In this document: in pieces, positions 26,444-31,216 of the stretch
Position numbering within the stretch: position 1 is the first letter of the stretch
Layout of the letters: the number at the start of each line of letters is the position of its first letter
Sequence record: PX104380.1
Source: a phage
DNA length: 64,000 nt
Reading direction: 5' to 3' (one strand)
Translations under genes and position numbers: made by a program
Notes under the pieces: model-generated
What the model was told of the DNA's origin: nothing
The model's database searches: none
The model's input: only the letters and a program-made list of their open reading frames with translations

Positions 26444-26465
26444 ATGGGGACCGAAAGGTCCCCAT
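26444..26465. terminator. bidirectional hairpin AUGGGGACC-GAAA-GGUCCCCAU between gene 54 and the convergent 96-aa ORF
   Basis: 9-bp stem, GAAA loop, T-run on plus side. Confidence 0.6.
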
Positions 26466-26469
26466 ATTT

Positions 26470-26760
26470 TTATTTACGGAATGAAATAAAAGCAGCAACT
26501 GAAGCAACTAAACTGTCTTCAATATAAACTTCAATTTTTACCGGAGCTTCTGATTCAAATTTACCTGTTACTACACCCTGAAAAATACTTTCAGTCTGTT
26601 TTGGCTTTGAAAAATTTTCAGAAGGAAAAATTCCGAACTTTTTATCTGTTCCGAAAATTTTAATAAATTCATCATAAACTGCTTCATTGAAAGCGTTATC
26701 AGCGGGAATAACGCCTTCAACGACGAGTTCTTGACCTAAAAAGCGCAAAGAAGATTTCAT
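26470..26760 (-). CDS. hypothetical protein, 96 aa (alt.-3 position)
   Basis: ATG with SD GAGGA; own early promoter upstream and terminator downstream. Confidence 0.6.
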   Translation of the reverse strand: MKSSLRFLGQELVVEGVIPADNAFNEAVYDEFIKIFGTDKKFGIFPSENFSKPKQTESIFQGVVTGKFESEAPVKIEVYIEDSLVASVAAFISFRK

Positions 26761-26791: not shown

Positions 26792-26821
26792 ACTATAACA
26801 CAATACGAGGGACTTGTAAAC
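26792..26821 (-). promoter_or_regulatory. T4-type early promoter (GTTTAC-N18-TATAGT, extended -10 TG)
   Basis: -35 GTTTAC fused to stop TAG of the upstream alt paralog; part of a 53-bp element 51/53 identical to 42044-42096. Confidence 0.55.
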
Positions 26822-28878
26822 TACATTTTGAACTTTTTAGACATTCCGTTAATGTTAACCAAAGAAGCCAAGATTTGAGAAACTTCGTTTTCCTCTTCTT
26901 TTGATTCTTCTACAAGGAATTGATTAAATCCAGCCATTGGACGAACTTCACCAGTTTCCATTAGATGGTCGCCATCATATACCGATTCTTCTAATTGTTC
27001 AGAAGGAGGAACGATTGTGCCTTCGATTAGATACTTGTTATAAGCAGTTTCTTTCATCATGTACGTACTCACTTTATTAATCTTCAGCAAAATTCCACGC
27101 GGTAGAATAACTTCAGCTTCCGATGGAAATCCTGATAAATGACCTGGAACGATAACTTTAACTCGTTCAGCTCCTTTAATTACCATACCTACATTAGTTT
27201 CAGCGTCTTCATTCGCATATGTAGAATGACTACCCATATGCATTAAATCTTCAGCATCAACTGAACCTTCTCCTTCACCAGAAAATACTGCTCCGGAATC
27301 ATCTAAGGCCATATAATTTTTACCATATTCACCGAAGATATTTGGCTTGAGTGAAGTAGATACAAAGTTCTTGAAATAGAACATTTTATTTTCTATATTA
27401 TGACGTAAAGTTTTAAAAGTAACTTCTTGGCCACGGTAAAGTGTAGTTCCCGGAGGAAGAACTGAACCTTTAGCAAATGCAGAATCCAACGTCTCAATGT
27501 GCTTAATAGCACGTTCCATATATTCTTCACGTGTAGAATCAGGTTTACCTAAAAGGAATGAGTTCATTTCAACATATGAATCTGCACAATAATCTTCAAT
27601 TACATCAGATTCAGCCTGAGTTAATCCTTTTGGAGTTACTTCAGTGCTTGCATATTCATATGCCTGAGCAGCAGATTCATCAATCAATTTATAAATTCCA
27701 TTCATTACAAATTGAATAATAGCTGTCTTTTCATCTGGCGTAGCTTTAGAACCTTTAACTAAATCATTGATAATTTTCTTAATAACATCAAAGCTATTAG
27801 AAATATTAATGTCAGCAAGATCGCTTAAAATTTTATCAGTTTTATAATCAAAGAATTCTTTATTCTTTAAATATTCTTGAGAACCTTGATATGTTATATC
27901 GCTCTGCAGCTTGATAGATGGATCACGTAAACGTGCATGGGCCAATGCAATATGATTTCGGAAGCTTTCGAGTTCATAATCACTAGATTTAAAACGAGAA
28001 GCGCTTCTCATACCGCCTATAGCTCCTTTGCTGAAGTTTGAACCAATCTGGATAACACCAGAGTTCATCGGACCTTCTGCTTTATATACCGGAACTTTAG
28101 ATTCAAACTCTTGATATTTCTTAGCAGCGAAGCTATCACCCTGAAGTGAAGCATCGACAGTAGAATATTGAGCTTGTGCTGCTAATCGACGACTAATTTT
28201 AGTTTTTTGAATAACAGCTTGATCCGTGCGCTTATCATTTTCTAAAGCAATAGAAGCAGCAACAGCGACAGCTTTAGGAACAGCATTACCGGTTTTAACA
28301 TCTACATAAACATCACCAACATTTGATTCAACTTTTGTGAATAACTCAGTTGAAATAGGAGGTACACCTGGAATGTCTTCTAAATTGGCATTTTTACGGT
28401 AAACCATAATATATGCGTACTTTTTATCATAATCCCAGATTTCCTTTAAAAGAACATATCGACCTGCTCCTTTAGTACGTACTAAACGGTCAGCAATAAC
28501 TTGCATTTGACGAGCTGCGCCATTTGTTTTACTTTTTAGTACGCGGAATAGGCATGCATCAATTTTATACTGCTTTATTGTTTGAAGAGCAGTATCAAAA
28601 ACAGCATTAATGACGCCAATTGGATTTCCACCCAAGTTTTTAAGTTTAACTAATGATAGTTTCTCATTAACACCTATCATTACGATATGCATCATTTTAT
28701 CGCCTGGCTTAACGTTTTTATTTGTATCACCGCCAGAGGTGTATGTACAAAATCTAAATCCAGGAAGCACGCTTTCTTCGCCGGCTTGAATAGCAAAAAT
28801 TTGTGGTATTTTATGCTTAGGATTTAAGTTAACAACCGGCGCCGAAGCGCCGTCAAATAATTCTGTAATAAGTTCCAT
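26821..28878 (-). CDS. Alt-like ADP-ribosyltransferase paralog (685 aa)
   Basis: N-terminus MELITELFDG highly similar to the upstream paralog; ART triad YRGQ / FVSTSL / SEAEVILPRG intact. Confidence 0.85.
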   Translation of the reverse strand: MELITELFDGASAPVVNLNPKHKIPQIFAIQAGEESVLPGFRFCTYTSGGDTNKNVKPGDKMMHIVMIGVNEKLSLVKLKNLGGNPIGVINAVFDTALQTIKQYKIDACLFRVLKSKTNGAARQMQVIADRLVRTKGAGRYVLLKEIWDYDKKYAYIMVYRKNANLEDIPGVPPISTELFTKVESNVGDVYVDVKTGNAVPKAVAVAASIALENDKRTDQAVIQKTKISRRLAAQAQYSTVDASLQGDSFAAKKYQEFESKVPVYKAEGPMNSGVIQIGSNFSKGAIGGMRSASRFKSSDYELESFRNHIALAHARLRDPSIKLQSDITYQGSQEYLKNKEFFDYKTDKILSDLADINISNSFDVIKKIINDLVKGSKATPDEKTAIIQFVMNGIYKLIDESAAQAYEYASTEVTPKGLTQAESDVIEDYCADSYVEMNSFLLGKPDSTREEYMERAIKHIETLDSAFAKGSVLPPGTTLYRGQEVTFKTLRHNIENKMFYFKNFVSTSLKPNIFGEYGKNYMALDDSGAVFSGEGEGSVDAEDLMHMGSHSTYANEDAETNVGMVIKGAERVKVIVPGHLSGFPSEAEVILPRGILLKINKVSTYMMKETAYNKYLIEGTIVPPSEQLEESVYDGDHLMETGEVRPMAGFNQFLVEESKEEENEVSQILASLVNINGMSKKFKM

Positions 28879-28881
28879 GAT

Positions 28882-30975
28882 TTATCCTTGAACGAACTTG
28901 TAAGGCATGTTTGTAATATCTATGCAAGACGCAATAATTCCAAGAGATGATTCTACTTTCTGTTTAACATTTGATGAAACAAATGATGCAAAGTCAACTC
29001 TGTCTTCTACTTTAATATCACCTGTCATTGCAACCAATTCACCAGTTTCCATTAGACGGTCACCGTCATAAATTACCGATTCGGTGAGTTCTTCCGTAGT
29101 CATAACTTCAGCTTGAATGAGTTTTGTATTATTAGATGTTGTTCCGTCATTATTAGAAGCATCAGTTATTTTATTAACTTTGACCATCAATCCGCGCGGT
29201 AGAATAACTTCAGCTTCTGTTGCTATTCCGAGACTTCCTGGATATACAACATTAACTTTATGAGCTCCATCAATTGCCCATCCTATTTGAACTTTAACAT
29301 ATTCAGGATTTTCTTTATACGCTCTTATTTCGTTTGGATTAATAGTTATTCCTTCTTCATTTTTATCAACTGTTAATTCATTACGAGCTTCTGGTTCTAA
29401 AAGACCAATACCAGCATGTGTGATTCCAAAACGTCCAAAAATGATAGGAGTTAAAGAAGTAGATACAAAATTTCTGAAGTAGAACACTTTATTTTTAACT
29501 AACGCTTCATATATAGGAGCAGTCATACTTTGAGCACGATAAACTGTAATGTCTTCTGGTATACGGTCACCATTTTCAAAAGCTGAATCTAAGTTATTTA
29601 TAGCAGATTCAATTTCTTTTTCACTCATTACATCGTATCGTTCTGGATTGTAACGACCTAAAAGAAGATTATTGATGTCAGTATATCCTGAACCGCAATA
29701 TTCTCTAATGCCACGCTTTTGTGATGGAGTATATTTAGAACCATCGCGTGCAATAGTAATATCAATCATTGGACCAGCACCAATTCCAGAAAAACTGTAA
29801 ATCATTCGTTTGAGGAATTTAGTTTTTGCTGCGTTCCAGGAATTTTTAGTTATTTCTTCCCAGACTTCATCTGGCTGCCCTTTACGATTTTTATTATGTT
29901 TATCAAGCCATTTATCTTTGTATTCTTCAAAGAATTTATTAACAGCTGCTGCGTATTTCTCTAAACATTTTATTGAAGTAGTTGGTTCATTTTTGATTGC
30001 GTTAAAAATTACATCTTTAATTTTTTCTGAAACTTCATCAACCTCACTTTTTGAAAAGAATTTATAGTCATAGTGAAGTTCATCTGCGGTTCCTTCGGCA
30101 ATAATTTTTGCTGCCTTAGTTTTAGAAGCTAATGAATTAATTCCAAGCTTCATTTCTTCTGCTTCGGGAATTAAAGGAGCGGTAGCAGGTTTATTGAAAT
30201 TAGCTGCGGTAGATTCATACTTATGGAATAATTCACTTTCAAATCTAGAAGATTCCAACGACTGACTTTGCGCAATTGCTCTACGGGAAATTTTAACTTT
30301 AACGATTACAGCTTGGTCAGAACGTTTATCATTTTCTTGTGCAATAGATGCTGCAATTGCCTCATTTTTAGTTACTTGAGCTCCAGTATCTTTATTGATA
30401 TAAACATCACCGACCTTCGATTCAACCTTAGTAAAGAGCTCGGTACTAATTTCCGGAACCCCTGGAATGTCTTCTAGTGATACATTTTTGCGATGTATAA
30501 GAATATATGCATACTTTTTATCGTAATCCCAGAGTTCCTTAAGAAGGACGTATCTACCACCTGAACGACTGCGGATGAGTCTATCAGCAATAAGTTGAAT
30601 TTGTCGAGCTTGACCGGCGGTTTTAGACTTAAGAATACGAAGCATGCAGGCATCAATTTTATATTGACGCATTGTTTGCATTGCAACAGTAAAAACTGAA
30701 TTGATATAATTAATCGGGCTTGGCCCAAGACCTTTTAATTTAGCAATTGAACCTTTAGCAGTTAATGTAAAAGGAACAATATGCATCATTTTATCGCCCA
30801 TTTTTAAATCGCGATTAGTATCACCTCCAGATGTATAGGTACATAAACGAAAGCCTGGTTGTTCAATTGCATCATCAACATGAACTGAAAAAATTTGCGG
30901 TATTTTCTTCTTTGGATTTAAGTTTGTAATCGGAAGAGTAGTATCTTCGTCAAATAATTCTGTAATTAGTTCCAT
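28882..30975 (-). CDS. alt: Alt ADP-ribosyltransferase (697 aa)
   Basis: N-terminus MELITELFDE; ART triad YRAQ / FVSTSL / TEAEVILPRG; position downstream of gene 30 as T4 alt. Confidence 0.88.
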   Translation of the reverse strand: MELITELFDEDTTLPITNLNPKKKIPQIFSVHVDDAIEQPGFRLCTYTSGGDTNRDLKMGDKMMHIVPFTLTAKGSIAKLKGLGPSPINYINSVFTVAMQTMRQYKIDACMLRILKSKTAGQARQIQLIADRLIRSRSGGRYVLLKELWDYDKKYAYILIHRKNVSLEDIPGVPEISTELFTKVESKVGDVYINKDTGAQVTKNEAIAASIAQENDKRSDQAVIVKVKISRRAIAQSQSLESSRFESELFHKYESTAANFNKPATAPLIPEAEEMKLGINSLASKTKAAKIIAEGTADELHYDYKFFSKSEVDEVSEKIKDVIFNAIKNEPTTSIKCLEKYAAAVNKFFEEYKDKWLDKHNKNRKGQPDEVWEEITKNSWNAAKTKFLKRMIYSFSGIGAGPMIDITIARDGSKYTPSQKRGIREYCGSGYTDINNLLLGRYNPERYDVMSEKEIESAINNLDSAFENGDRIPEDITVYRAQSMTAPIYEALVKNKVFYFRNFVSTSLTPIIFGRFGITHAGIGLLEPEARNELTVDKNEEGITINPNEIRAYKENPEYVKVQIGWAIDGAHKVNVVYPGSLGIATEAEVILPRGLMVKVNKITDASNNDGTTSNNTKLIQAEVMTTEELTESVIYDGDRLMETGELVAMTGDIKVEDRVDFASFVSSNVKQKVESSLGIIASCIDITNMPYKFVQG

Positions 30976-30998
30976 GTTATCCTCTCTAGTGTTTATTC

Positions 30999-31006
30999 TA
31001 TTTATA
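30999..31006 (-). promoter_or_regulatory. late promoter TATAAATA for alt
   Basis: minus-strand TATAAATA 23 nt upstream of alt ATG, following the terminator hairpin. Confidence 0.5.
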
Positions 31007-31011
31007 AAATT

Positions 31012-31029
31012 AAAGGCCCGAAGGCCTTT
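31012..31029 (-). terminator. hairpin AAAGGCC-UUCG-GGCCUUU overlapping stop of the 62-aa ORF
   Basis: 7-bp stem followed on minus strand by U-rich tract. Confidence 0.5.
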
Positions 31030-31216
31030 AGTAATCTAGTGGTAAGAGAGTACGGTATATTTCAAACTTCGGTCCTTTTTCATATGGATCAAATCTTTCC
31101 GTGAATTCATCATATGCTAGTTTATCTGGGAATTCAAGAATAACCTGCGATACCGCAGTGGAAACATCTCCACCTTCTTTTTGAGCCACGACAATTGTTT
31201 CTAAGTAAGCTTTCAT
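31028..31216 (-). CDS. hypothetical protein, 62 aa
   Basis: ATGA overlap with ligase stop. Confidence 0.5.
   Translation of the reverse strand: MKAYLETIVVAQKEGGDVSTAVSQVILEFPDKLAYDEFTERFDPYEKGPKFEIYRTLLPLDY

Follow-up and report, generated by a model that had tools for sequence, protein, structure and literature searches.

The 64,000-nucleotide stretch of phage DNA analyzed here (sequence record PX104380.1; hereafter, the window) is a segment of a Tequatrovirus (T2-like) genome. Two open reading frames (ORFs) encoding 697 and 685 amino acid residues lie in tandem on its minus strand, and both encode full-length paralogues of Alt, the virion-packaged NAD:arginine mono-ADP-ribosyltransferase of phage T4 (gpAlt, NP_049811). 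They are called AltA and AltB in this study. As stated in a preliminary description of this DNA, the intercistronic spacer is only 3 nt in length (TAA-ATC-ATG), both proteins begin with MELITELFD, and their residues 1-238 are highly similar (about 66% amino-acid identity). The pair is flanked by the DNA ligase gene (gene 30) and alt.1 upstream and by alt.-3 and gene 54 downstream, with a putative late promoter ahead of it, and this is the arrangement of the T4 alt locus. The features of the locus are listed in Table 1.

Table 1. Positions of genes, predicted domains, catalytic residues and putative signals at the alt locus of the window
Feature	Position	Strand	Remark
Intrinsic terminator hairpin TAAAGGCCTTCGGGCCTTTA followed by a T run	31011-31030	(-)	ends the upstream gene 30/alt.1 transcript
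T4-type late promoter TATAAATA	30999-31006	(-)	23 nt ahead of the AltA start codon
AltA	28882-30975	(-)	697 aa; positional orthologue of T4 alt; "T2-type" centre+ART cassette
AltA N-propeptide, residues 1-6	30958-30975	(-)	
AltA N-terminal alpha/beta domain, 7-238	30262-30957	(-)	
AltA helical centre, 239-416	29728-30261	(-)	
AltA ART domain, 417-632	29080-29727	(-)	
Second TATAAATA, inside AltA codons A-I-N-N 458-461	29595-29602	(-)	717 nt upstream of the AltB start codon
AltA catalytic R480 (YRAQ)	29536-29538	(-)	
AltA S505-T-S507 (FVSTSL)	29455-29463	(-)	
AltA catalytic ExE, E587-A-E589	29209-29217	(-)	columns invariant in the alignment
AltA C-propeptide, 633-697	28885-29079	(-)	
AltB Shine-Dalgarno sequence AAGGA	28885-28889	(-)	within the last codons of AltA
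AltB	26821-28878	(-)	685 aa; second full-length Alt paralogue
AltB N-propeptide, residues 1-6	28861-28878	(-)	
AltB N-terminal domain, 7-238	28165-28860	(-)	
A5 run, AltB codons ~54-55	28715-28719	(-)	T4 has one A fewer
9-bp direct repeat CTAAAAAGT, upstream copy	28531-28539	(-)	AltB nt 340; left edge of the T4 deletion
AltB-specific helical centre, 239-420	27619-28164	(-)	
AltB ART domain, 421-631	26986-27618	(-)	
AltB catalytic R482 (YRGQ)	27433-27435	(-)	
AltB S507-T-S509 (FVSTSL)	27352-27360	(-)	
AltB aromatic ARTT residue F584	27127-27129	(-)	
AltB catalytic ExE, E587-A-E589	27112-27120	(-)	
AltB L629-E-E631, predicted C-terminal gp21 cleavage site	26986-26994	(-)	aligns with LTE-619 of T4 Alt
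AltB C-propeptide, 632-685	26824-26985	(-)	
9-bp direct repeat CTAAAAAGT, downstream copy	26832-26840	(-)	AltB nt 2039; right edge of the T4 deletion
alt.-3 (96 aa, DUF5498)	26470-26760	(-)	downstream neighbor; own sigma70-like promoter 26820-26792; bidirectional terminator 26444-26465

By every feature that can be assessed from sequence and fold, AltB clearly belongs to the Alt family. AltA and AltB are 41% identical in BLASTP (E=2e-156), match Pfam PF03496 (E=4e-38 and 5e-20 for the two proteins), and cover the whole profile of PHROG 802, "Alt-like RNA polymerase ADP-ribosyltransferase" (E=9.5e-272 for AltA and 6.8e-256 for AltB). PF26846 ("Tevenvirinae_ADPRT") is among the precomputed Pfam hits of AltB, its orthologues, and the AltA/AltB hybrids described below, while neither protein has a match in NCBIfam or PADLOC. 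A sequence search of the PDB with AltB alone as the query gave no match; the C3-like and binary toxins were reached only by the profile of the Alt family, not by the AltB sequence. In the profile alignment to PDB 4xsg, an ADP-ribosyltransferase (ART) of 219 residues, the YRG of AltB falls on the YRG arginine of 4xsg, and the EAE of AltB falls on the Q-x-E or E-x-E positions of 4xsg and the binary toxins. The intact ART triad recognized in the preliminary description was found in both proteins (YRAQ in AltA or YRGQ in AltB, FVSTSL, and EAE), and R482, S507, S509, E587, and E589 are invariant in an alignment of 20 diverse homologues. It is known that a glutamate-to-alanine change in T4 Alt, reported as E577A, abolishes the activity (PMC11404850), although the ExE glutamates of T4 Alt are E574 and E576 when counted on the RefSeq protein. 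The AlphaFold models, which are of moderate confidence (predicted local distance difference test (pLDDT) 74.6 for AltB and 72.6 for AltA), have one four-part architecture in common. An N-terminal alpha/beta domain (residues ~12-215) is followed by a short low-confidence linker, an all-helical centre modeled with high confidence (~250-414) whose last helix is 34-40 residues long, an ART domain (~421-622), and a disordered C-terminal tail. Thus, the predicted central domains of AltA and AltB are all-helical and similar in size and position.

The divergence between AltA and AltB differs from region to region. The preliminary description regarded the central ~250 residues as largely unrelated; the lack of detectable similarity was borne out, while the size of the divergent centre was corrected to about 190 residues. 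The identity in this region (from residue 239 to about 420) is 17-32% in windows and 21% in a domain-wise comparison, and profile-profile alignment of the two centres with hhalign detected no homology (probability 0.3%). When residues 235-440 of AltB were compared with 1.84 billion representative proteins, only two matches were found, both belonging to the AltB lineage. The ART domains are 36% identical and the C-terminal tails 41% identical. As a scale for the former value, T4 ModA and ModB, for which different targets are annotated in the T4 record, are 27% identical to each other. The synonymous divergence (dS) between AltA and AltB is saturated in all regions. Since the identity at third codon positions is about 0.5 and dS is 1.65 even in the similar N-terminal domains, the duplication is old, and a recent gene conversion, which was considered as an explanation for the similar N-termini, was rejected on the same grounds. 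Within the ART domains, the insertion between S-T-S and ExE differs between AltA and AltB and is poorly modeled by AlphaFold in both. The residue three positions before ExE is a conserved phenylalanine or tyrosine in the AltB lineage, isoleucine in AltA, and proline in T4 Alt (proline or glutamine in T4-type and related proteins). C3 and iota toxins have an aromatic residue of the ADP-ribosylating turn-turn (ARTT) loop at this position, which contacts the substrate.

As stated in the preliminary description and confirmed in the T4 record, T4 has one intact alt gene and the short alt.-1 and alt.-2 ORFs. Between the end of alt and alt.-3, the T4 DNA can be aligned with the window in two blocks of 96% and 95% identity, which abut at a 9-bp repeat CTAAAAAGT. 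The former block corresponds to AltB codons 1 to ~117, and the latter covers the final 20 nt of AltB and continues through alt.-3. T4 has a single copy of the repeat and has lost 1,699 bp, while the window keeps both copies, the 1,690 bp between them, and the A5 run; the window gene is thus not a remnant of the alt.-1/alt.-2 type. The T4 remnant is split into alt.-1 and alt.-2 because of the 1-nt frameshift in the A5 run, and the alt.-1 and alt.-2 proteins (NP_049810 and NP_049809) reproduce AltB residues 1-55 and 62-115 almost exactly. Judging from these alignments, alt.-1 and alt.-2 are the stump of a full-length paralogue, left after a frameshift and a deletion bounded by microhomology. T4 is, in this respect, a naturally occurring deletion mutant of AltB. 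The annotation in the T4 record, "a duplication of the first part of gene alt", is not quite right in the light of the alignment. Nolan et al. (2006) listed alt.-1/alt.-2 and a full-length alt duplicate of phage 44RR as paralogous duplications (PMC1524935). AltB and T4 alt.-1/alt.-2 are one and the same gene at one locus.

Is the second intact copy unusual, as had been suggested in the preliminary description? This idea was largely refuted, since the downstream gene is the collinear and intact counterpart of T4 alt.-1 plus alt.-2, and the two-gene state is that of the majority. In a phage collection of 50,697 records, the AltB centre was found in 402 records at 93% or higher nucleotide identity, whereas the T4-type deletion junction was found in 91 records, including T4. 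A tblastn search with AltB found 403 records at 80% or higher protein identity, and all of the 20 AltB-type rows sampled across the ranking were single full-length matches. The 4.9-kb region around the pair is 97.6% identical to phage ECP52 and is more than 80% covered in 345 phage records. The pair is present in T2 (97.8% and 98.2% protein identity to the window for the two genes) and in a Dhakavirus. Many records annotate the genes as alt_1 and alt_2 or as "Alt-like RNA polymerase ADP-ribosyltransferase (x2)". The tandem pair itself is already known, being an ordinary trait annotated in hundreds of public genomes and normal in most T-even phages.

Between the window and T2, AltB has a dS of 0.25 and a nonsynonymous divergence (dN) of 0.008, and the resulting dN/dS of 0.033, which is low in all four regions, indicates that AltB is a gene under strong purifying selection. 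The corresponding dN/dS of AltA is 0.062. The Dhakavirus vB_EcoM_IME341 also has a tandem full-length pair (gp076 and gp077), 3 nt apart, between alt.1 and alt.-3, and thus the duplication predates the split of the two genera. The identities of the N-terminal domain, the centre, and the ART domain are 46%, 65%, and 94% between Tequatrovirus AltA and the Dhakavirus upstream copy, and 44%, 43%, and 58% between Tequatrovirus AltB and the Dhakavirus downstream copy. The corresponding values within a genus are 66%, 21%, and 36% for AltA and AltB of Tequatrovirus, and 67%, 18%, and 38% for the two copies of Dhakavirus. The N-terminal domains are 42-46% identical between the two genera, whichever paralogues are compared. 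Thus, the N-terminal domains follow the genus, while the effector halves (centre and ART domain) follow the position across the genera; for this reason, the two effector lineages must be older than the genus split. The N-terminal domain seems to evolve in concert within a genome, via gene conversion between the copies and/or co-adaptation to the head of each genus. Concerted evolution of this kind would fit a role of the N-terminal domain as a packaging module, and the genus-specific N-termini suggest an older or patchy gene conversion.

Recombination has also reshaped the upstream gene. In comparison with T4 alt, AltA is a mosaic; its N-terminal domain and C-propeptide are 95-99% identical to those of T4 Alt (dS 0.13), while the centre and the ART domain are 33% and 66% identical (dS 1.2-1.4). 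This difference in dS between the cassette and its flanks indicates that the AltA cassette was replaced by recombination. At least two types of cassettes occur in the upstream gene, the T2 type as in the window (321 records) and the T4 type (175 records). The 94% identity of the T2-type ART domain to that of the Dhakavirus upstream gene suggests that effector cassettes have been exchanged by recombination even between genera. At least four states of the alt locus were found: T2-type AltA plus AltB (the window and T2), T4-type Alt plus an intact AltB (the Tequatrovirus vB_EcoM_G4507), Alt plus the remnant (T4), and a single hybrid gene consisting of an AltA N-terminal part and an AltB remainder (ECML-134 and metagenomic contigs). 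In the finished genome of the isolate ECML-134, the hybrid is the sole alt gene and switches near codon 157. Metagenomic contigs also have a hybrid as the sole alt gene, which switches elsewhere, at nt ~547 and ~665. A gene of this kind is what unequal crossing-over between the N-terminal coding regions should yield. The possibility that the hybrids are assembly artefacts was rejected, because the longest exact stretch shared by AltA and AltB is 23 nt and a finished genome has one. In all, the in-frame A/B hybrids change over at no fewer than three places (near codons 157, 183, and 221), and two protein clusters (P0003 and P0004) seem to represent additional breakpoints near codons 50 and 105.

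Alt-type enzymes are characteristically present in the mature head (~40 copies) and ejected into the host. In T4 heads, mass spectrometry revealed that the protease gp21 cleaves Alt at ITE-6 and LTE-619 (PMC5694885). The cleavage takes off 63 C-terminal residues and leaves a protein of 68.2 kDa (PMC5694885; PMC9026906), a mass which was regained here by applying the published sites to the T4 sequence. Both AltA and AltB have gp21 motifs at the aligned positions: MELITE|L at the N-terminus of both, LTE632|S in AltA, and LEE631|S in AltB. The glutamate of the C-terminal site (E631 in AltB) is invariant across the family alignment, and the AltB model loses confidence and is disordered from residue 629 on. 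The predicted mature masses are 70.3 kDa for AltA and 69.1 kDa for AltB, and therefore the two mature proteins would nearly co-migrate on gels. The C-terminal segment YDGD[RH]LMETGE, which the preliminary description pointed out as a shared part of the enzymes, is indeed present in both, but it lies in the C-propeptide that is cut from mature T4 Alt. Since the segment is conserved within the C-propeptide, it would act ahead of head assembly or in the course of it, rather than in the enzyme once injected; targeting, tethering, or auto-inhibition may be considered.

The start of the upstream gene shows a small variation. Upstream of alt, T4, T2, ECML-134, and G4507 have the sequence GAGAGG(A/C)TATGATGGAAC, in which two ATGs lie side by side, while AltA has one ATG in the context GAGAGGATAACATGGAAC (30976-30990, minus strand). 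The two adjacent ATGs may be a reason why the length of the N-propeptide is quoted as 6 or 7 residues in different papers.

How might the two genes be expressed? As the preliminary description claimed, a terminator and a TATAAATA late promoter precede the upstream gene only. The counterpart of the hairpin is annotated as a terminator in vB_EcoM_G4507, and the TATAAATA upstream of alt is kept in T4, T2, ECML-134, and G4507. The motif occurs 19 times in the window, compared with an expected number of 8.6. Neither a terminator nor a promoter was found at the junction between AltA and AltB. The 3-nt spacer and the Shine-Dalgarno sequence inside the last AltA codons suggest that the translation of AltB may be coupled to that of AltA, and late co-transcription with coupled translation is the simplest reading of these putative signals. 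The second TATAAATA inside AltA, which matches the late-promoter consensus perfectly and is kept in T2 AltA, could be a late promoter or a chance match. The aligned codons of T4 Alt read A-I-D-N, and T4 alt showed no internal TATAAATA.

Taken together, AltA and AltB are an ancient duplicate pair within the Tevenvirinae Alt family, a family of mono-ADP-ribosyltransferases packaged into virions. The two genes would be transcribed together late in infection from the TATAAATA upstream of AltA, with AltB translation probably coupled to that of AltA. Each protein consists of an N-terminal alpha/beta domain, a helical centre, and a C3/VIP2-like ART domain of the R-S-E class whose ExE motif predicts arginine specificity, with predicted propeptides at both ends. 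They would be packaged into the prohead core, trimmed by gp21 at ITE-6 and at LxE (E632 in AltA and E631 in AltB) into enzymes of about 70 and 69 kDa, and ejected into the host together with the DNA. There, AltA would act like T4 Alt and ADP-ribosylate RNA polymerase alpha and other host proteins, while AltB would modify a different set of host arginines via its own centre and its own substrate-recognition loops. The gene integrity, the catalytic residues, the fold, the purifying selection, the cleavage-motif conservation, the synteny, and the retention of the pair across two genera were observed here, while I infer that the genes are co-transcribed and that their products are cleaved, packaged, injected, and enzymatically active on distinct targets. 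That both proteins are late-made, packaged, trimmed, and injected arginine-specific enzymes, with AltA resembling T4 Alt and AltB having its own targets, is the reading I lean towards and consider somewhat more probable than not. The distinct function of AltB is suggested by the unrelated centres, the 36% identity of the ART domains, the ARTT-loop difference, and the position-specific orthology across genera. The survival of ECML-134 with a hybrid of AltA-N and AltB as its only alt gene was also counted toward a distinct function.

Several points weigh against this reading. The ExE arginine signature is shared, and AltA and AltB may therefore have overlapping targets such as RNA polymerase alpha. 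The ARTT argument is made by analogy with C3 and iota toxins, and the structural models are of moderate confidence (pLDDT 73-75). From their secondary-structure strings, the two centres may share a fold and differ in surface. The co-transcription is deduced from consensus motifs, and the internal TATAAATA could yield a separate AltB transcript. In addition, AltB is dispensable, as the 91 records with the deletion, including T4, indicate. T4 Alt is the only Alt with a biochemical characterization (PMC5512222; PMC9503650), and I found in the literature neither a paper on the packaging, activity, or targets of AltB nor virion proteomics of a two-alt phage.

A rather unlikely alternative is that AltB is packaged and active on the same targets as AltA (Arg265 of RNA polymerase alpha and others) and raises or buffers the injected dose. 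The common family, architecture, and ExE arginine signature would agree with such redundancy, as would the fact that either gene can be lost; T4-type genomes have no AltB, ECML-134-type hybrids have no AltA effector half, and T4 alt itself is described as non-essential (PMC9026906). However, unrelated centres and 36%-identical ART domains maintained under a dN/dS of about 0.03-0.06 are unexpected for redundant copies. The positional orthology across two genera is likewise unexpected, and the ARTT-loop residue differs systematically between the AltA and AltB lineages.

It seems less probable again that AltB is not injected and has its role in the producing cell or the prohead, as a late intracellular enzyme or as a structural protein of head assembly or the core. 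AltB lies behind a late promoter, the prohead core contains Alt (PMC9026906), and Alt has been considered possibly structural besides catalytic (PMC11404850). However, a purely structural role would not need all of the catalytic residues, which are invariant. Moreover, the N-terminal domain and the processing motifs at both termini of AltB are those of the injected T4 Alt, and nothing sets AltB apart from AltA in the regions to which packaging is ascribed. Lastly, it is hardly credible that AltB is a decaying duplicate, intact only in appearance and becoming a pseudogene as in T4, because the deleted and frameshifted remnant of T4 and 90 other records and some shorter protein clusters (624, 528, and 415 aa) are outweighed by the full-length dN/dS of 0.033 against T2 at a dS of 0.25, the retention of the AltB centre in 402 records, the 20 of 20 full-length tblastn matches, and the orthologue kept in Dhakavirus.

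A bolder proposal may also be made, to which I would give a chance close to even but slightly short of it: AltB may be a second virion-delivered arginine-specific ADP-ribosyltransferase with targets unlike those of Alt. The candidates would be proteins of translation, RNA metabolism, or anti-phage defence, and the genus-specific N-terminal domain would serve as an exchangeable packaging module, with the centre plus ART domain forming effector cassettes that can be swapped. In that case, two different enzymes that modify the host would be injected by most T-even and Dhakavirus phages, and T4, from which everything known about "alteration" is derived, would naturally lack one of the two. What is known of the function of injected phage ADP-ribosyltransferases was learned entirely from T4, which lost AltB, and AltB was overlooked mainly for this reason. 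About four in five sequenced Tequatrovirus records, T2 included, carry AltB, which is strongly conserved, apparently catalytic, and apparently packaged, and has an unrelated substrate-facing centre. The targets of AltB could reveal a further host-takeover or counter-defence activity and could explain some of the host-range differences between T2 and T4.

In comparison with known systems, AltA is closest to T4 Alt, with which it shares the flanking genes, the terminator, and the late promoter. Their N-terminal domains are 99% identical and their C-propeptides 95% identical, whereas the identity is 33% in the centre and 66% in the ART domain. Both window proteins resemble T4 Alt in the four-part architecture, the R/STS/ExE residues, and the two gp21 cleavage motifs. 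However, AltB is only 42% identical to T4 Alt overall and 36% in the ART domain, and it differs in its unrelated centre and its aromatic ARTT residue. A T2 hypothetical protein annotated as "alt.-1" (AYD82791) is 98.2% identical to AltB and equal in length, and its gene follows alt with the same 3-nt spacing. The alt_2 or "Alt-like RNA polymerase ADP-ribosyltransferase" proteins of about 400 Tequatrovirus genomes are AltB orthologues without any substantive difference. In Dhakavirus, for which the vB_EcoM_IME341 pair and JS10 Alt were compared, the downstream copy belongs to the AltB lineage and has the aromatic ARTT residue, and the upstream copy belongs to the AltA lineage; they differ from the window proteins in the genus-specific N-terminal domains. 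T4 ModA and ModB belong to the same R-S-E catalytic class, and their R, S, and ExE positions align with those of the Alt ART domains. In contrast to Alt, they are early, non-packaged proteins of 200-207 aa encoded elsewhere in the genome, with an ART domain only (15-20% identical to the Alt ART domains) and neither an N-terminal packaging domain nor propeptides. The C3-like and binary-toxin ARTs (Vis, C3bot, VIP2, iota Ia, CDTa, and Certhrax) are secreted toxins of bacteria, which show 17-24% identity and lack phage packaging domains.

Instability of the alt locus seems to be a general trait of the strabovirus family. Among the BFVD matches, "split" Alt genes were seen in the Acinetobacter phages ZZ1 and Henu6, and several Alt fragments and copies were seen in Citrobacter CF1 and Aeromonas phages. 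As for the downstream neighbor, it is known that mutations extending the C-terminus of alt.-3 allow T4 to escape from the CmdTAC defence, via blocked degradation of the CmdA antitoxin (PMC11618068).

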